Source: Escherichia phage LF82-11
Reading direction: 5' to 3' (one strand)
Length of the DNA stretch: 52,979 nucleotides
Sequence record: PV660454
The notes beneath the pieces were generated by a model. That model worked only from the letters and a program-made list of their open reading frames with translations, was not told the origin of the DNA and made no database searches. This document shows, piece after piece, positions 20,678-52,469 of this stretch; the first letter of the stretch is position 1, and the number at the start of each line of letters is the position of its first letter. Made by a program: the position numbers and the translations under genes.

Positions 20678-20795
20678 AATGCCACCTCGTGAGTTTGTTT
20701 GATTGAGTGCAAATAATACACCAGCGAGCAGACAAAATCAAAGTCAACATGTCGTTCCTGTAGTTAGCTGTTAAGAAAATCACTTTCCGGCGATT

Positions 20796-21031
20796 TCGAT
20801 ACACGCAACTACAGAAAACTACAGCGTTATACATTGCGTAAGTATATATATAATAAGGGTTTATCTAATATTATTATTATTACTATATTCATGTTGTAGT
20901 TAGTGTAACGGTATCGTTTGGTGATTCCCGGATATCTTTTCGAATAGTTGAGTTAATTGTGTGGTTATTAGGATGCCGATACCTGGCTACCCCTCCGCAA
21001 TCCGCGTTAAAATCGATACACGCAACTACAG
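20796..21031. repeat. iteron-like repeats in AT-rich intergenic region
   Basis: 19-bp direct repeat TCGATACACGCAACTACAG at about 20796 and 21013; AACTACAG/CTGTAGTT copies in both orientations. Confidence 0.5.
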
Positions 21032-21116
21032 TCAGCATTCATGCGGGTTTGAAGGGTGTTTTTTGTAACGAATGCCATTATCGACAAAAAATAACACTAA
21101 CGACACGTTATATATT

Positions 21117-21144
21117 TGACAAAGCGAATGAACCGCGTATACTC
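21117..21144 (+). promoter_or_regulatory. sigma70-like promoter for recombination genes
   Basis: TTGACA, 16-bp spacer, TATACT. Confidence 0.45.
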
Positions 21145-21176
21145 AGCCACATCAACCACAACTGAGGAATAAAGTG

Positions 21177-27073: not shown

Positions 27074-27532
27074 TCATTGATTAGCTTTTCGTGCTTTCAG
27101 TGTTTTCCAGGATGGTTGCTCCGGCTTGGTTTCTAACTCTTCCTTTCTCACCACGCGCAGCATGTGACGCTTTTTGCATCGGACTGTTAGCGGCTTGCCG
27201 TTGCCGTCGAATGACAGATCAGGGCGGCACCACGACGCGCGGAAACCTCCGCCATTTCGTTTATATGCGTTGTGCGCCAGTTGCGCGCCTCGCGCTGAAA
27301 TCATGCCGCGTTGCCGCCACTCATAAACAACCTGAAGCGAAACGCGCAATTCTTTCGCCAGCTTTGCAGGTGAGCCGTAGAATTCAAGGATGGTATCTAA
27401 TCTAGCCTTAAGCCCGGCCTTTACTTCGTCTCGTAAAACATAGTAACCTACTGGACGTTTTCGGCGCTTAGCGTCACTTCCGCGCTTCGTTCCATTGTTC
27501 CCATTAAGCGTGCGTTTATCTACGGTTTCCAT
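27074..27532 (-). CDS. basic HTH-type DNA-binding protein
   Basis: LAKELRVSLQVVYEWRQRG resembles a Cro/YdaS-like helix-turn-helix; Arg/Lys-rich. Confidence 0.35.
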   Translation of the reverse strand: METVDKRTLNGNNGTKRGSDAKRRKRPVGYYVLRDEVKAGLKARLDTILEFYGSPAKLAKELRVSLQVVYEWRQRGMISARGAQLAHNAYKRNGGGFRASWCRPDLSFDGNGKPLTVRCKKRHMLRVVRKEELETKPEQPSWKTLKARKANQ

Positions 27533-27545
27533 AATTATTCCTCAA

Positions 27546-27588
27546 TAGCATTTTTTGTTAAAACTGGATTGTTGAGGCGTGTATTATA
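27546..27588 (+). promoter_or_regulatory. box-promoter module upstream of helicase
   Basis: TAGCATTTTTTGTTA, about 21-22 bp, TATTAT. Confidence 0.45.
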
Positions 27589-27624
27589 TCAATCAAACGA
27601 ACGAACATCAAAGGCATTAACACG

Positions 27625-29694
27625 ATGAAAATCAAGAGCATCAAGAAGCAGATTGAGGAGTTAGGCGAGGATAAGATCGCAGAGCTTCAAAAGAAATTCA
27701 CTTTTGGTGACATTGTTCCTTATGCGTATCAGTGCGTCATGTACGACGAGATCGCAAAGCGCATTTCCGCATACAAACACCCATTCTTTGTTAAGGCTTC
27801 CGTGTCGGCTGGCAAAACAGTTGGGTTTGCCATGGTGGCGGCGCGGTGCAGGGAAATGACTAGCGCAAAGTTTCCAAAGGGTTTATCAATGGCAATCCTC
27901 GCTCGCCAGGGTGAGATCGTATCTCAGGATAGCCAGGAGCTAACAAACTTCGGCGTGCCGAATAGCGTTTACTGCGCCGGGCTTGGTACTAAATCTGCAT
28001 ACTTCCCGATCGTCGTTGGCTCTGAGGGTTCAGTTGCAAACGGGCTTTTCAAGGCTCTCGGAGACTTCGCGCCAATGGTTGTCGGCATCGACGAATGTCA
28101 CCAGGTGGATTGGGAAGACCTTGCAGACTCGATCGAGAAGAACGAAAGCTATGAGGAAATGAGCAGACCAAAGGATGAGGCTTACATGATCAATGGCGAA
28201 GTAGTCGATCGCGGGTTGAAGATATCAAGCCTCATGGAAACCCTGGGAACAGTTGCACCAGGTGCCGGGCGCTCTCAGTACACGATAATCATTCGTGAGT
28301 TGCAGCGTCGATGCCTGGAAGTTCACGGAAAGGAACTACGCATATTCGGCATGACTGGTTCAGAGTTTCGCGGCACAACTCCGATCCTTGTTGAGAATAT
28401 GAAACTCAAAGGCTTCTGGCGCGAGCAGGTAACGAACATTGATACGAACTACCTCATTGAGTTTGGCTCGGTTGTTCCAACCGTCTTCGGCTCAACTGGC
28501 GGGTTAGGCTACGATCTGGAAGAGTTCAAAGCGTCAAGCGAAGATGGAACAAAAGACTTTGACGCGAAAGTAATGAAGAAGATGGAGGAGAAGATCCACA
28601 AGGATGCTTCCATGACGGCAAGAATTATGGCGGCGGTTGTGGAGGAAGCGAAGAAGCGAAACGGCGTTCTAATTACTTGCTCAGGGCAACGACACTGTAA
28701 AGAGGCGGCTAGTTACCTGCCTGAAGGCTCAACGTATGCGATCATTACTGAGAAGACCGGAACGAAACAGCGCCAGCAAATCCTTGATGATGCAAACCAG
28801 GGAAAGATAAAGTACATCTTCCAGGTTGTGGCATTGACGACTGGCGTTAACGTGCCGTTTTGGGATTTCTCCGTGATACTCCGTAAGATTGGCTCTCTCA
28901 CATTGCTGATACAGTTGCTTGGGCGCGGAATGCGACTTTTAAAGGCGTGGCAAATCGCAATGGGGATGGTGAAGACAGATCACCTTGTTTGGGATTTTGC
29001 CGGAACTATGGACGAATTAGGCCAACTTTACTTTGACCCGATTCTTGAGGAAGCTCAGTATCAACGCCGTTTCGACTCGAAGAAGGAGCCTAAAAAATGC
29101 CCTATTTGCGGTCATGAAAACAGTTTCTTTGCTCGTCGCTGTATCAGTCGGGATTTGAACGGAAACAGATGTGAGTATTTCTGGAAGTCGAGAACGTGCG
29201 AGGATCAGGTTGACGATCGAACCGGGAAAGTTATTGTGAAGGGTTGCGGTGTTCAAAATGATGTTGTAGCTCGAATCTGTAGGGGTTGTGATGCTAGCCT
29301 AACAGATCCCAACGCCAACTTAACCGGGAAGGCGTACACAAAAAACGACTGGTGCCAGGTTCTCAGCTTTGAGGTTGGGCTTACCAAAAACCAGACCGGG
29401 ATCATTTATAAATATCGCTTGCGTGATATGCTCGGAGAGGAGTTTAACGCATACGAGAAGTTTTTCCCTGAGTCTCAGGCTCAGGTATGCCACACGATAT
29501 GGAAAACAAAAGGCGTGCTTCCACACGTTCACGATTCGAAAGTGGCAAAGCTTATGGCAGCATACAGGAGCGCGCGCCTGATCTTACAAAACGCGCACCA
29601 CATCGCGCACCCGGTACGGGTTACGCATCGCAAAAACGCAAAGGGCGAAGATATCATTTCGCGCAAGGACTTCGGTCTTAATGAGGGCTTATGA
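27625..29694 (+). CDS. SF2 DNA helicase (DEAH-like) with C-terminal zinc-ribbon region
   Basis: Walker A SAGKT, motif II DECH, C-terminal Cys clusters. Confidence 0.7.
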   Translation: MKIKSIKKQIEELGEDKIAELQKKFTFGDIVPYAYQCVMYDEIAKRISAYKHPFFVKASVSAGKTVGFAMVAARCREMTSAKFPKGLSMAILARQGEIVSQDSQELTNFGVPNSVYCAGLGTKSAYFPIVVGSEGSVANGLFKALGDFAPMVVGIDECHQVDWEDLADSIEKNESYEEMSRPKDEAYMINGEVVDRGLKISSLMETLGTVAPGAGRSQYTIIIRELQRRCLEVHGKELRIFGMTGSEFRGTTPILVENMKLKGFWREQVTNIDTNYLIEFGSVVPTVFGSTGGLGYDLEEFKASSEDGTKDFDAKVMKKMEEKIHKDASMTARIMAAVVEEAKKRNGVLITCSGQRHCKEAASYLPEGSTYAIITEKTGTKQRQQILDDANQGKIKYIFQVVALTTGVNVPFWDFSVILRKIGSLTLLIQLLGRGMRLLKAWQIAMGMVKTDHLVWDFAGTMDELGQLYFDPILEEAQYQRRFDSKKEPKKCPICGHENSFFARRCISRDLNGNRCEYFWKSRTCEDQVDDRTGKVIVKGCGVQNDVVARICRGCDASLTDPNANLTGKAYTKNDWCQVLSFEVGLTKNQTGIIYKYRLRDMLGEEFNAYEKFFPESQAQVCHTIWKTKGVLPHVHDSKVAKLMAAYRSARLILQNAHHIAHPVRVTHRKNAKGEDIISRKDFGLNEGL

Positions 29695-36842: not shown

Positions 36843-36870
36843 GTTAAAAACTCCTTGTTTGGTTGCTCAA

Positions 36871-39090: not shown

Positions 39091-39435
39091 TTTGATGCCG
39101 TCAAAGGTTGTGTATTTCAGGTTCACACTGACCTTGCCATCATCGAAATGGAAAGCGGGAGCCTCAAAGCGGATGATGTTATTCATCGTTCCGGCCTCTA
39201 CGTAGCGTCGTGCGCCATTTCTCATGGGGATAACGCTGACTCTCTTTGCCGCATCGAATGGATTTGAAACGCCAAAGTATCGACATACAGCGCCGCGCAA
39301 CGCCTCATCTTCATGCTTATGCATATCACGGATGAGGCGATTTTTAGCGTCCATCATCACATCATAGCTTGCACAGCTAGAGCCGATGTTGCTATATTCG
39401 CGCATTCCGCCAACCTTGAATTGATTGTTGTTCAT
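39088..39435 (-). CDS. hypothetical protein
   Basis: 115 aa, ATGA-coupled to upstream gene. Confidence 0.3.
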   Translation of the reverse strand: MNNNQFKVGGMREYSNIGSSCASYDVMMDAKNRLIRDMHKHEDEALRGAVCRYFGVSNPFDAAKRVSVIPMRNGARRYVEAGTMNNIIRFEAPAFHFDDGKVSVNLKYTTFDGIK

Positions 39436-39680
39436 GGTAACTTTACCTCGTTGTATTCACAGAATTCGATTACATATTCACAGCTATCGGTTGACTCAGT
39501 GCCGCGCAGAACATCACAGCCGCCATCACTACCCAAGAAGGCCGGGCATGAAGCGCACAGCGCGCCGCCGCAATTCGATTCGACGATTGACATTCCGTTA
39601 CACCTTCCGCCGCCGAATCGGTGCGGAAAGTCATAGGCGCGGCAGTCGCACGTAACCTGGTGTCGCTTACGCTTTTGCAT
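39432..39680 (-). CDS. Cys-rich small protein (putative metal-binding)
   Basis: 82 aa with more than 10 Cys in C-x2-C-like spacing. Confidence 0.3.
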   Translation of the reverse strand: MQKRKRHQVTCDCRAYDFPHRFGGGRCNGMSIVESNCGGALCASCPAFLGSDGGCDVLRGTESTDSCEYVIEFCEYNEVKLP

Positions 39681-41110: not shown

Positions 41111-41355
41111 AACCACTCCATTGCTTTGATGATGCACTCTGCCTGTGAGCCGATAAACGAGTTGTCTTTGGTATCAGCTCTCCACTGACGCGATCCTTTT
41201 GCCACCTGGGTGCACGTAATCATAACGCCACCACGATAACCAACCTTGAACGCGTTTGATGTCTTGCCATTACTGCGCTTACGGAAATGGTCAGTAACGA
41301 TTACTCCGTTGTCAGTTGCAGCGTCGATTGCTTGCTGAATGGTTAACTTGCTCAT
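41107..41355 (-). CDS. hypothetical protein
   Basis: 82 aa ORF. Confidence 0.3.
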   Translation of the reverse strand: MSKLTIQQAIDAATDNGVIVTDHFRKRSNGKTSNAFKVGYRGGVMITCTQVAKGSRQWRADTKDNSFIGSQAECIIKAMEWL

Positions 41356-41358
41356 AAA

Positions 41359-41598
41359 TTACCCCTTGATAGTCAGGCCGAAAGCCTCAACCAGAATGTC
41401 ACTTGCAGCGTGCATTTCGCAACGAGCAACCTCACGGTCATCAAAATTCTCTACAGCGTACATCACAACACCACGAGCCTGATCAGCTTCTACAAACTGG
41501 TTGCAACGGTCATTCAGTTCTTTCGCTAACTCAGCGTCAAAATCAGCCGTTACGCCTTCGATAAACTCCGCCTCGGTGATGATGTTCATGTAGCGCAT
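41359..41598 (-). CDS. strongly acidic small protein, first gene of leftward early operon
   Basis: 79 aa with about 19 Asp/Glu versus about 7 Lys/Arg; RBS GAGGAAA. Confidence 0.35.
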   Translation of the reverse strand: MRYMNIITEAEFIEGVTADFDAELAKELNDRCNQFVEADQARGVVMYAVENFDDREVARCEMHAASDILVEAFGLTIKG

Positions 41599-41629
41599 TG
41601 CTGTTTCCTCAGTTCGTTTCGTTGAGATA

Positions 41630-41672
41630 ACTATAGCCGAAACATCCTGAGTGGTTTTAGCAAAAAGTGCTA
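41630..41672 (-). promoter_or_regulatory. box-promoter module (minus), leftward early promoter
   Basis: TAGCACTTTTTGCTA on minus strand, 22 bp, TATAGT. Confidence 0.5.
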
Positions 41673-41690
41673 TTGATTCGATTTATCCAA

Positions 41691-41748
41691 TTATTCCATT
41701 ATTCCAACTATTCTGGAATATTCCTGAATAACCGAATATCTGGAATAG
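41691..41748. repeat. GGAATA/TATTCC iteron cluster including 10-bp palindrome GGAATATTCC
   Basis: TTATTCCA x2 direct, GGAATATTCC palindrome, further GGAATA copies. Confidence 0.55.
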
Positions 41749-41793
41749 TCAAAATGACTATGGCTCTCCGTTCGTTTTAGCGAACAAACGTTC

Positions 41794-41818
41794 GATGTGA
41801 TGTGATGTGATGTGAATG
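41794..41818. repeat. tandem pentamer repeat (GATGT)x4 plus one imperfect copy
   Basis: four perfect tandem GATGT then GAATG. Confidence 0.6.
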
Positions 41819-41831
41819 AGGGTGAGGAGGC

Positions 41832-41845
41832 GATCAGATCTGATC
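41832..41845. promoter_or_regulatory. 14-bp perfect palindrome GATCAGATCTGATC with three GATC sites
   Basis: perfect palindrome, flanked by GGTGAGG/CCTCACC inverted repeat. Confidence 0.6.
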
Positions 41846-41954
41846 CCGAAACTTTTTCCCTCACCGCACGATTTGCTAATGAATTGTCGTGCCTGTAGTT
41901 GTATGTTGTGTTTTACGTTTTCCGTGGAAATCGGTACGCGCTACTACGCGGAAT

Positions 41955-42060
41955 AACAATGTTATGCTTTATATATAGATATATAAGTATATATAAAATA
42001 AAGGTTTTTTATTATATATATTATCTAATTTCATAACACTTTATAACGTGTTGTGTTTGT
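41955..42060. other. AT-rich tract (possible DNA unwinding element)
   Basis: about 100 bp of TATATA-rich sequence in the divergent intergenic region. Confidence 0.4.
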
Positions 42061-42247
42061 TCCGCCGGACGCGGAGTGATTGATATGTTTCGCGGCCTAT
42101 TTATGCCTATATTGTGAAATATGGGTAGGGGGATATATACCCCTCCGAAATCCGCAACAAACGCTTAATACGCACTACAACCCAGCAGGAATGCACCATG
42201 TAGAGGAGATTTTGTTGATAATGGCAATAATCGACACAAATTAATCT

Positions 42248-42276
42248 TGACTACAATTAAGCTTTTCCGCATTATG
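42248..42276 (+). promoter_or_regulatory. sigma70-like rightward early promoter
   Basis: TTGACT, 17-bp spacer, CATTAT. Confidence 0.45.
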
Positions 42277-42307
42277 GCGGCTCAACCAATCAGATGAGGT
42301 ATCACCC

Positions 42308-42805
42308 ATGACACTTGCAGAAGTATTGCGCTATATGGCAACCGAAGCCATGAAATCCCCTGAGAAGGAGATCACCGTGCCAGTGTGGCAAATCCTGGTT
42401 CAGGCACACAATCTGGACGCTGACGAGCGCCGCGCATTACAGGCAGACTTTGACAAGCGCGTTGAGCTGGTAGCAAGTGAGAAGCGCCTGACCAACTCGT
42501 ACATCACCAACACCTGCAACCGCATGAAGGAAATGATCGCGGCTGACCTATCCATCACCACAAAGCGTGGCGAGGACGACGGCGGGAATCGGACGCTCAC
42601 CCTGGGCGTTAAGCCCGGCGCAATGAAGCTGGGCAGTCGGAGCAAGTCGGAGAACATCGCGGCGAAGAATGCAGTGCAGGATTTTGCCCGGCGCATCATG
42701 GAGATTGCCCCAGCACTAGATAGCCTGAGCGATGATCGCGTTGCTGGTGCCGTCGATGGCGTGCGCATGATGAAAGAGCTGATTGCCAGGGAGGCCGGAC
42801 TATGA
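42308..42805 (+). CDS. hypothetical protein, first gene of rightward early operon
   Basis: 165 aa, RBS GAGG; flanked upstream and downstream by GGAATA iterons. Confidence 0.35.
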   Translation: MTLAEVLRYMATEAMKSPEKEITVPVWQILVQAHNLDADERRALQADFDKRVELVASEKRLTNSYITNTCNRMKEMIAADLSITTKRGEDDGGNRTLTLGVKPGAMKLGSRSKSENIAAKNAVQDFARRIMEIAPALDSLSDDRVAGAVDGVRMMKELIAREAGL

Positions 42806-43014
42806 AGCTTCGAATAGCTATCGTTTCCGTTGTGCTGCCATTCAGCGGCGAGCGCAAAAACACATACGCCGTTCAAAAGCGGATCGGCTTCTTCTGGTGG
42901 CAGACGCTTACCCTGTGTGACAGCTTGCCCCAGGCGCGCCACTATGTACGCCACACCCTGGAAGATCGCAGTGGTGAAAAGCTGGTCAAGGTTCTGAATC
43001 GTTATTCCTCTTGA
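42802..43014 (+). CDS. hypothetical protein
   Basis: 70 aa, ATGA-coupled. Confidence 0.25.
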   Translation: MKLRIAIVSVVLPFSGERKNTYAVQKRIGFFWWQTLTLCDSLPQARHYVRHTLEDRSGEKLVKVLNRYSS

Positions 43015-43029
43015 ATGGAATAATTGGAA

Positions 43030-43072
43030 TAGCACGAACTGCTAAAACACCAGATCGGGGCTATGCCATAAT
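43030..43072 (+). promoter_or_regulatory. box-promoter module
   Basis: TAGCACGAACTGCTA preceded by GGAATA x2, 22 bp with GGGGCTAT/ATAGCCC hairpin, CATAAT. Confidence 0.5.
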
Positions 43073-43103
43073 AGCCCTACACCAACAAAACGAGGTTAGC
43101 ACA

Positions 43104-43319
43104 ATGGAAACTGTAACAATCGGCGCTAAGCCGCCATCATTTGACAACTTCCCGTCGCAATTCGTTGAGGATGAATACGGTGACGAAACAGAGGTGTCTT
43201 TAATTCACTCGTCAGGCAACAAGTCTGTACTCATGGAAAGCGGCAACATGATTTTCACGCCAGATCAGGCGCGCGAACTGGCTGCGGCTCTCATCAAGGC
43301 GGCTGAGGTGTGCGAATGA
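43104..43319 (+). CDS. hypothetical acidic protein
   Basis: 71 aa from ATG 43104, RBS GAGG. Confidence 0.3.
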   Translation: METVTIGAKPPSFDNFPSQFVEDEYGDETEVSLIHSSGNKSVLMESGNMIFTPDQARELAAALIKAAEVCE

Positions 43320-52381: not shown

Positions 52382-52469
52382 GGAAGGTTGGCAGAGTGGA
52401 CGATCGCGCACGGTTGCTAACCGTCAAGCCGGAAACGGCTCAAGGGTTCGAATCCCTTACCTTCCACCA
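52382..52469 (+). tRNA. tRNA-Ser (anticodon GCU), type II with long variable arm
   Basis: 7-bp acceptor stem GGAAGGT/ACCTTCC, TTGCTAA anticodon loop, GCCG-gaaa-CGGC variable arm, AAGGG-TTCGAAT-CCCTT T-arm, 3' ACCA; D-stem and anticodon stem each carry a mismatch. Confidence 0.6.

Follow-up and report, generated by a model that had tools for sequence, protein, structure and literature searches.

The genome of Escherichia phage LF82-11 was analyzed as a single stretch of 52,979 nucleotides (the window), and we examined in particular its largest noncoding gap, a 709-bp interval at 41599-42307 flanked by divergent leftward and rightward operons. Annotated gene order places LF82-11 among the T1-like siphoviruses, with the terminase at position 1; the annotation also contains an exoVIII-Erf-SSB recombination operon, a primase, two helicases, two Dam-type methyltransferases and long stretches of small genes without known function. 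The 2 kb around the gap are 100% identical to those of four Escherichia phages isolated on E. coli LF82. An initial annotation of this interval had listed iterons, four GATGT copies, a triple GATC, an AT-rich tract, the element GGGGGATATATACCCC, a promoter and a second iteron cluster, and all of these were found to be present and nonrandom. The features assigned in and beside the gap were as follows, where DR denotes a 21-nucleotide (nt) direct repeat and pac the packaging start.

41599-42307, noncoding gap of 709 bp, between the leftward gene 41359-41598 and the rightward gene 42308-42805
41630..41675, minus strand, leftward DR-type promoter; DR AATAGCACTTTTTGCTAAAAC with its core at 41655-41673 and a -10-like TATAGT at 41630-41635
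41677..41753, no strand, GGAATA/TATTCC array, at -54 to -130 relative to the leftward promoter
41748..41758, no strand, palindrome GTCAAAATGAC, separating the array from the pac block
41794..41848, plus strand, predicted pac block; four GATGT copies, then GAATGAGGGTGAGGAGG, then the palindrome GATCAGATCTGATC, with packaging predicted to proceed rightward
41861..41879, plus strand, degenerate DR-like element ACCGCACGATTTGCTAATG, similar to the DR at 43032-43045 and of uncertain function
41917..42246, plus strand, AT-rich module copy 1, paralogous to 20783-21115
41917-41952, left arm of copy 1, TTTTCCGTGGAAATCGGTACGCGCTACTACGCGG
about 41955-42047, AT core of copy 1
42128-42143, 42140-42155, 42166-42181 and 42225-42240, right arm of copy 1, consisting of GGGGGATATATACCCC, CCCCTCCGAAATCCGC, TAATACGCACTACAAC and CAATAATCGACACAAA, respectively
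42247..42275, plus strand, rightward sigma70-type promoter TTGACT-17-CATTAT, with 9/12 matches, upstream of the DUF7174 operon
42308..42805, plus strand, first rightward gene, DUF7174 (PF23796; phrog_4841), 165 amino acids (aa)
43003..43072, plus strand, secondary GGAATA cluster, with TATTCC at 43003 and GGAATA at 43017 and 43026, joined to the DR-type promoter that comes first in the rightward direction

Conservation of the gap was assessed in two close metagenomic relatives, L145 and L147. Identity across the gap was 95 to 97%, while the adjacent DUF7174 gene had 84% identity (77% at third codon positions of the first 300 nt) and the second rightward gene 73%; the values for the neighboring genes were 84%, 73% and 51% overall, and the first leftward gene had been substituted outright rather than merely diverged. 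Conservation was continuous and was not limited to short boxes. As the gap was conserved above its flanking genes, the whole region must be functional beyond the visible motifs, and the gap is, as judged from these comparisons, under purifying selection. The view that a dense functional control region separates the divergent operons was thus borne out. The same blocks were present in the same order in distant Drexlerviridae, indicating that the features of the gap did not arise by chance. T1 (NC_005833, 48675-48836 joined to 1-538), TLS, Rtp and MSK have, at the same position between leftward and rightward small-gene operons, a DR, a palindromic array, GATC sites, GATG/GATTG repeats, an AT core, a sigma70 promoter and a DUF7174-family gene. 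The array is GGAATA in T1 too, and the small terminase subunit (TerS) of these phages is likewise of the gp3 type. An Rfam search of 41300-43300 matched no family. Overall, we consider that the gap is probably a composite genome-end control region, consisting of pac, promoters and an operator, which is common to T1-like Drexlerviridae and is not a single iteron origin.

The position of the packaging start was examined by comparison with phages whose ends have been mapped or assigned. The T1 record has positions 1-2800 annotated as a terminal repeat and its first gene at 539, and the start of the record falls within homologous GATGTGATT repeats. When the ends of T1 were joined, the order was DR, TATTCCA...ATTATTCCA...TGGAATATCTGGAATAA, two GATC sites and AATGATGAGATGTGATT, followed from position 1 onward by GTTGCATGG...GTTGATGTGATTGTTGC. 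This order indicated that T1 has the same GGAATA array and that the T1 end lies within GATGTGAT repeats. In TLS, restriction mapping of a submolar pac fragment narrowed down position 1, which comes after three GATC sites and GATGATGATTGATGTGTG; the final choice was based on its likeness to the P22 pac sequence (PMC11447400). In the Rtp-like phage MSK, the PhageTerm start at 36,862 (p = 1.6e-9; PMC8421802) lies directly after a GATG / GTGAGTGA block, and the Rtp record begins ∼95 nt to the left of the MSK start point. The SU57 end has also been placed in the homologous untranslated region (PMC7718038). A six-way alignment located the T1, TLS, Rtp and MSK ends at roughly 41733-41805 of LF82-11.

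GATG/GATTG repeats and a G-rich stretch were detected between the leftward DR and the AT core in LF82-11, HazelMika, NBD2, T1, TLS, Rtp and MSK. To extend this comparison, 80 loci around TerS homologues were fetched and the region beside the last leftward DR was extracted; the block was present in most of the 53 distinct regions obtained. The four GATGT copies of LF82-11 occupy 41794-41813, and GATCAGATCTGATC (41832-41845) is a perfect palindrome with the only instance in the genome of three GATC sites within 20 nt. Because both elements lie in the block that holds the mapped or assigned ends of T1, TLS, Rtp and MSK, the segment 41794-41848 was assigned as the predicted pac block. The terminase genes are similar to those of T1, with 51% identity for TerS and 64% for the large subunit (TerL), and TerS matches the Pfam family GP3_package (E = 2.4e-14), which is of the P22 gp3 type. 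Some differences from the relatives were apparent. Relative to T1, HazelMika and TLS, LF82-11 has its GATC cluster and GATG repeats in the opposite order, and to the right of the predicted pac it has a degenerate rightward DR where T1 carries a complete second DR pointing leftward.

GATC is overrepresented in LF82-11, with 349 copies compared to ∼207 expected from length. GATC clusters were found at the pac position in LF82-11, T1, TLS and HazelMika and were absent from Rtp-type phages. T1 has a total of 235 GATC sites and Rtp has 72, the Rtp record having no annotated methyltransferase. Among the lineages compared, the cluster was confined to those that are GATC rich and encode Dam. In phage P1, pac comprises TGATC(A/G) hexamers, four and three of which flank the cut, and Dam methylation licenses cutting. 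LF82-11 is similar to P1 in having a GATC cluster at the packaging start and in encoding its own Dam-type methyltransferases but differs in having its three sites within one 14-bp palindrome, no IHF core and an unrelated terminase family. By analogy, the GATC cluster may render the pac cut sensitive to Dam methylation by the phage itself.

The DR was described in TLS, and also in T1 and Rtp, as a 21-nt intergenic repeat, aaATAGCACnnnTTGnTAAAA, that is oriented with transcription and lies ∼76 nt before start codons; the TLS genome paper gives its function as an open question (PMC11447400). We detected 24 copies in LF82-11, compared to 0.17 expected. The copies at 41655-41673 (minus strand) and 43029-43047 (plus strand) have 0 mismatches to aaATAGCACnnnTTGnTAAAA and are oriented with transcription, and the distance to the start codon is 76 nt for both (from 41673 to the ATG at 41598 and from 43029 to 43104). 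When all copies were aligned, 13 of the 24 had a TAnnnT hexamer at a distance of exactly 20 nt downstream of the DR, 19 had A2/T6 of the hexamer and 12 had a TG at -15/-14. The fixed location of this hexamer at +20 and the TG in half of the copies argue for promoter-like units in which an extended -10 is combined with a conserved upstream element that takes the place of a -35.

Several other properties of the DR units were noted. Further sites include 26006, 30107, 33111, 39073, 44496, 45843 and 50986. Within the DR is a dyad, TAGCA-N5-TGCTA, and 23 of the 24 copies have C or T at the variable base of the DR. A hairpin whose sequence varies while its pairing is kept lies between the DR and the -10, and a CA-rich leader (ACACCAACAAAC) followed by a Shine-Dalgarno sequence lies downstream of the -10. 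Of the degenerate element at 41861, the CACCGCAC-N3-TTGC portion is kept in HazelMika and unchanged in L145 and L147; near the equivalent place, T1 carries a complete second DR (103-123) in leftward orientation. The relatives L145, L146, L147 and L148 share the DR at 43029 and carry two different cassettes, each a hairpin with a downstream gene, directly after it; on the other side, replacement of the first leftward gene in relatives begins at the -10 of the leftward promoter. Gene-cassette mosaicism thus appears to have its junctions at DR promoters.

The repeats described as iterons in the initial annotation are copies of GGAATA/TATTCC, and their distribution in the window was examined. There are 37 such hexamers in 52,979 bp, five exact copies being in 41692-41747 and three in 43003-43031, which are the two densest windows for this motif in the genome. 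The density in the first of these, which is the highest, has a Poisson probability of ∼1e-9 per 60-bp window, or ∼2e-6 after correction for the number of windows. Degenerate copies occur at 41684, 41709, 41726 and 41734. The array consists of four TAT(T/C)C(C/T) units and then four GAATA units, spaced 8 to 10 bp apart, and is centered on an 18/20 palindrome, ATTCTGGAATATTCCTGAAT (41710-41729), whose core, GGAATATTCC (41715-41724), is unique in the genome. The hexamer cores are intact in L145 and L147, in which changes are confined to spacer bases. The secondary cluster includes a 15-nt perfect inverted copy of the array (41686-41700 versus 43014-43028). Both clusters are directly upstream of a DR unit, the last GGAATA overlapping the DR at 43029; the promoter of the secondary cluster (DR 43029-43047, -10 CATAAT at 43067-43072) serves the gene 43104-43319. 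The secondary cluster was kept in the close relatives L145 to L148, with only spacer bases differing, but neither T1 nor any of 13 other loci, including six with a GGAATA array, had it ahead of the first rightward DR. Among the loci compared, it was thus seen only in LF82-11 and its close relatives.

The 53 regions were also used to compare the sequence at the array position. A GGAATA array was present at the same place in T1, Vilniusvirus, ∼25 Webervirus-like loci and the locus L030. Other motifs replaced it elsewhere: GCAATATTGC / ATTATTGCA in Rtp-like phages, two copies of AGACCGATTGGTCT in TLS, and GTAATCA, CAATCAC or TTGCA in further lineages. In LF82-11 and T1 (GGAATA) and in Rtp (GCAATA), this homologous spot is the densest window genome-wide for the motif of that phage. 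Swapping of the motif between lineages at one spot indicates a cognate sequence-specific protein, and the array looks like an operator-like site for a sequence-specific, probably dimeric, phage protein.

Two candidates for the protein that reads the array were tried and rejected. The helix-turn-helix of TerS did not covary with the motif: L030, which has GGAATA, and L015, which does not, have the same TerS recognition helix, WSKCALEKWRKEPG, and four different predicted recognition helices were present among LF82-11, T1, the Webervirus-like loci and L030, all of which have GGAATA arrays. The ST23-like helix-turn-helix regulator (27074-27532) of LF82-11 is nearer to that of Rtp (68%) than to that of T1 (49%), despite the GGAATA motif being common to LF82-11 and T1. 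The results for TerS bear on an alternative in which the array is the recognition site for the small terminase, like the pacL boxes of SPP1, with cutting 60 to 100 bp to the right. The pac sites of SPP1 and P1 are repeated short boxes beside the cut, the array directly adjoins the block with the mapped ends, and the Rtp record starts within the equivalent GCAATA array. Given the absence of covariation and the presence of a second cluster 1.3 kb away that is fused to an ordinary promoter, we regard a terminase site at the array as decidedly unlikely.

Two observations were made close to the array. The palindrome at 41748-41758, in which the relatives differ only at the central base, has counterparts at the same place in L015 (TGTCATTTTGACA), L016 (TGTCATTTTGAC) and L025 (CGTCAGCTTTTGACG) and is a possible additional protein site. 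An unannotated 82-aa cysteine-rich open reading frame (ORF) with CDC...C...C...C..C motifs was detected at 39432-39680 (minus strand) in a 231-bp annotation gap; it had no Pfam match. Homologues were present in 13 of 16 GGAATA-class loci and in 1 of 18 others, but phylogeny and the limited length of flanking sequence confound this split.

The right half of the gap is occupied by an AT-rich module. The tract at 41950-42049 has a GC content of 16%, and the 80-bp window at 41968, with 88.7% AT, is the most AT-rich in the genome. The gap at 20678-21176 aligned block by block with 41905-42310, revealing a second copy with the following features.

20783..21143, plus strand, AT-rich module copy 2, in the divergent gap 20678-21176, the second largest in the genome
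21116-21143, plus strand, sigma70 promoter TTGACA-16-TATACT, with 11/12 matches, upstream of the exoVIII-Erf-SSB operon

The blocks common to both copies are TTTCCGnnGAnnTCGnTACnCGCnACTAC, the AT core (TAAGTATATATAnAATAAnGG...), TACCCCTCCGnAATCCGC, ACGCAaCTACA, ATnATCGACAnAAA and the sigma70 promoter, and the element GGGGGATATATACCCC is part of the right arm of the module. Each module is ∼390 bp in length, and the local alignment score of the copies was 48, compared to 23.5 ± 4.3 in block shuffles. In copy 2, the AT core at ∼20829-20908, with 80% AT in the window at 20829, has the 19-mer TCGATACACGCAACTACAG on either side (20805 and 21011). No other 80-bp windows of the genome are as AT-rich as those in the two copies, which lie in its two largest gaps, both of which are divergent. 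Copy 2 has no GGAATA copies. The duplication speaks against the AT tract belonging to pac, and it shows that the GGAATA array, GATGT repeats and GATC cluster are outside the AT-rich module.

The distribution of the module was examined in 50 loci fetched around the ST23-like regulator, 45 of which had enough flanking sequence to scan; placement was checked in 18 printed sequences. All but one of the 45 scannable loci (44) had a 70-nt core of 83 to 91% AT at a distance of 3.5 to 9.5 kb from the regulator gene, and 17 of the 18 sequences checked had this core in the corresponding gap, with a TTGAC-type promoter downstream of it. Present in the arms are a box common to the family, (C)CTCCGCAAAT (also written (C)CTCCGCAAATCC) or GGCGTAAAT, and lineage-variable repeats, which are GTGAACA/GGAACA in many lineages, GATATACAC in Rtp and GTGTAACA in T1. 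The pac-proximal copy was also present in T1, Rtp and TLS, and a homologous module was present in HazelMika. Comparison of k-mer sharing between modules 1 and 2 within and between genomes was too noisy to assess concerted evolution. The annotated ORFs rtp46 (Rtp, 28260-28658), HAZELMIKA_57 and HAZELMIKA_58 (HazelMika, 2263-2586) are inside the conserved noncoding modules and are probably overcalls. In TLS-like phages and several other lineages, TGTTCAC and GTGAACA are inverted on either side of the core (TLS [L092], 130-150 and 405-425; module 2 arms of L118, L143 and L106). These repeats may resemble the P4 type I iteron, TGTTCACC. The family primase has a P4/T7-type zinc ribbon (Pfam Zn_Ribbon_Prim).

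The constraint on this part of the gap could also be exerted at the RNA level, through a structured leader or small RNA whose transcription starts at the DR-like element at 41861 and ends at a hairpin of terminator type (42070-42104). HazelMika, L145 and L147 have kept the DR-like element, terminator-like sites are present at 42032-42055 and 42070-42094, and the conservation is continuous rather than box limited. This explanation appears very improbable, as no Rfam family was matched, the RNA fold z-scores of -1.5 (41905-42105) and -2.5 (42050-42290) are not compelling, pairs in the core would be AU only and the T1 DR at that place points the opposite way.

The initial annotation had combined the iterons, AT tract and GATC sites into one replication origin. 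This combination did not hold: the GATGT and GATC repeats fit pac, the array abuts a DR promoter, GGAATA is absent from the second module, and the AT tract is 200 bp from the array and is duplicated. Neither an exact DnaA box (TTATNCACA) nor an IHF core (WATCARNNNNTTR) was present in 41599-42307 or 20678-21176; one-mismatch DnaA-like sites were found at 41811, 42213 and 21078. An iteron origin would be expected to have at least three direct repeats of ∼17 to 22 bp in helical phase beside an AT element. The GGAATA copies are instead hexamers in 8- to 10-bp units that occur in both orientations, are palindromic and lie 200 bp from the AT tract, while the arm boxes occur once per arm. The AT-rich element was origin-like, while phased long repeats and exact host factor sites were lacking, and the adjacent DUF7174 gene product resembled known initiators in structure without reaching significance. 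Cumulative GC skew had been suggested as a check for an origin. The skew turned at every change of gene strand (22, 28, 35 and 42 kb) and tracked all six strand switches; the turn at 42 kb is therefore uninformative on replication.

An alternative that retains an origin is that the AT module itself fulfills this function, with the 89%-AT core unwinding and the arm boxes binding a DUF7174 initiator, giving two origins, one at 42.0 kb and one at 20.9 kb; negative supercoiling would come from divergent transcription to either side. Such an origin is compatible with pac and promoters in the same gap, and it and the composite control region are not mutually exclusive. The location of the modules in the most AT-rich windows and the largest divergent gaps, the arms with a family-wide box and lineage-variable repeats, the matching core in nearly every scannable locus and the strong constraint on the whole region are all in its favor, and DUF7174 is the conserved first gene beside copy 1, with RepE, Pi and a Rep-iteron complex as neighbors of its structural model. 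In T1-like phages, an origin has yet to be identified (PMC11447400, PMC7718038). Conversely, exact DnaA and IHF sites are missing and the skew follows only gene strand. Both modules end in sigma70 promoters, such that a purely transcriptional role explains them equally well. The arm repeats did not covary with the helix-turn-helix of the conserved ST23-like regulator, which was rejected as their reader as GAACA-type repeats occurred with five different recognition helices. DUF7174 evolves fast, as do host takeover genes, and its fold match is nonsignificant. We regard an origin at the AT module as possible, if doubtful. The fuller proposal that Drexlerviridae carry two paralogous origins (42.0 and 20.9 kb here), opened by divergent transcription with DUF7174 as initiator, seems rather unlikely.

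Known systems provide partial parallels for the module. The presence of two initiator-binding sites in one genome has precedents in SPP1 (oriL and oriR) and P4 (ori and crr). As in the lambda ori/O, mini-F ori2/RepE and R6K gamma ori/Pi systems, an AT tract with boxes is followed in LF82-11 by a promoter and a winged-helix-like gene. Unlike these origins, LF82-11 has no phased 17- to 22-bp repeats, its GGAATA copies being 6 to 9 bp and in mixed orientation, and its module is duplicated, with the 21-kb copy preceding the exoVIII operon and having no initiator-like gene.

The first rightward gene had been proposed as a candidate initiator or regulator, and the 165-aa product was therefore compared to sequence and structure databases. 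The Pfam match to DUF7174 scored 103 bits against a cutoff of 27 and covered profile positions 6 to 147 of 153. BLAST detected Rtp rtp1 and similar proteins, each encoded by the first gene at the left end of its record, and profile methods added TLS gp01 (Pfam E = 2.6e-50) and T1 ST77 (hhalign probability of 93.5%). An apparent non-co-occurrence of DUF7174 and GGAATA arrays in the BLAST screen did not hold, as T1 ST77 and TLS gp01 are members by profile. A DUF7174 match was present in 30 loci; in the eight that were compared, it was the first gene to the right of the leftward DR and started 530 to 664 nt from it. Matches in BFVD were to Drexlerviridae only, and an IMG/VR search for loci related to DUF7174 returned only Rtp and NBD2. 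The family diverges fast, with 25 to 35% identity. The rightward promoter at 42247 is identical in L145 and L147 and has equivalents at the same place in T1, Rtp and TLS.

An AlphaFold model of the DUF7174 protein had a mean predicted local distance difference test score of 81.8 (∼90 for residues 1 to 100). Its topology is H-S-H-(two inserted helices)-H-S-S (H, helix; S, strand) followed by a C-terminal helical hairpin, and the N-terminal domain is winged-helix-like. In a Foldseek comparison with the PDB, the best probabilities were for RepE (0.75 and 0.69) and a Rep-iteron complex (0.54), with Pi among the neighbors; none of these matches was significant, and a sequence profile search of the PDB yielded only a chance ferritin match. 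The most conserved stretch, K-L-K-x-S-Y-I-x-N-T-x-x-R-M, corresponds to the predicted third helix, which makes a DNA-binding role plausible. The model thus lent some substance to the proposed regulator or initiator, while the resemblance to RepE and Pi did not reach significance. If DUF7174 binds DNA, a family-wide site, either the DR dyad or the arm box, would fit better as its target than the lineage-specific GGAATA array.

The composite control region that we favor would operate as follows. The leftward DR promoter, with its 21-nt upstream element and extended -10, would drive the operon that contains the DUF3987 helicase. The GGAATA/TATTCC half-sites in their nested palindromes would form an operator at which a bound phage protein tunes the leftward promoter; in LF82-11, this protein would in addition control the DR promoter at 43029 and might influence access to pac. 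The GATGT repeats, G-rich stretch and triple-GATC palindrome would be the pac at which the gp3-type terminase makes the first cut, with headfuls packaged rightward, and the GATC cluster could link this cut to Dam methylation as in P1. Finally, the AT module would lead into the sigma70 promoter of the first rightward genes (DUF7174 and a 70-aa gene), and the paralogous module with its own sigma70 promoter would drive the exoVIII-Erf-SSB operon at 21 kb. The module would then be a shared, protein-bound, easily melted upstream element of both promoters.

Several observations weigh against this interpretation. No tested candidate for the reader of the array covaried with the motif. The alignment used to transfer the ends is loose (∼±30 nt), and the Rtp start lies in the array and not in the GATG block. 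The starts of the T1, Rtp and TLS records are conventions that rest on experiments, that of TLS ultimately reflecting the likeness to P22; the pac of LF82-11 is a prediction from sequence, and its record was deposited as circular. The promoter at 42247 has just 9/12 consensus matches. An 89%-AT tract that lies 200 to 300 bp upstream of a promoter, with flanking boxes and a winged-helix gene nearby, is more origin-like than the usual promoter element. This origin-like appearance makes the role of the AT module as a promoter element the weakest step of the proposal.

T1-like phages are common laboratory contaminants and therapy candidates. In published genome papers for this group, the replication origin was not found and the function of the 21-nt repeat was unknown (PMC11447400, PMC7718038). 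As far as the searchable literature shows, the lineage-specific palindromic arrays beside pac, the extended -10 at a set distance from each DR, the duplication of the AT-rich module and DUF7174 as a conserved winged-helix-like first gene have not yet been described. Four predictions arise from this analysis: that pac is cut near 41.78-41.85 kb; that DR-type promoters have a fixed extended -10; that lineage-specific palindromic operators lie beside pac and are read by a protein other than TerS; and that the duplicated AT module and DUF7174 are the best candidates for an origin and its initiator or else form an early transcriptional switch. The location of pac would be useful for predicting generalized transduction and for engineering T1-like phages. 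If the two-origin proposal were true, the origin of T1 would be placed as well; the TLS (2024) and SU57 (2020) papers report no success in identifying it.

Two further observations were made elsewhere in the genome. A third divergent gap of 93 bp (27533-27625; 70% AT) lies between the operon of the ST23-like regulator and primase and the gene for an SF2 helicase. Within this gap are two sigma70-like promoters that point leftward (10/12 matches) and, at 27545, a DR that points rightward and is preceded by a single TATTCC; the gap could be another control point of replication genes. A tRNA-Ser (GCT) gene is present at 52382-52469 (plus strand) in a rightward small-gene operon, directly before the terminase genes.

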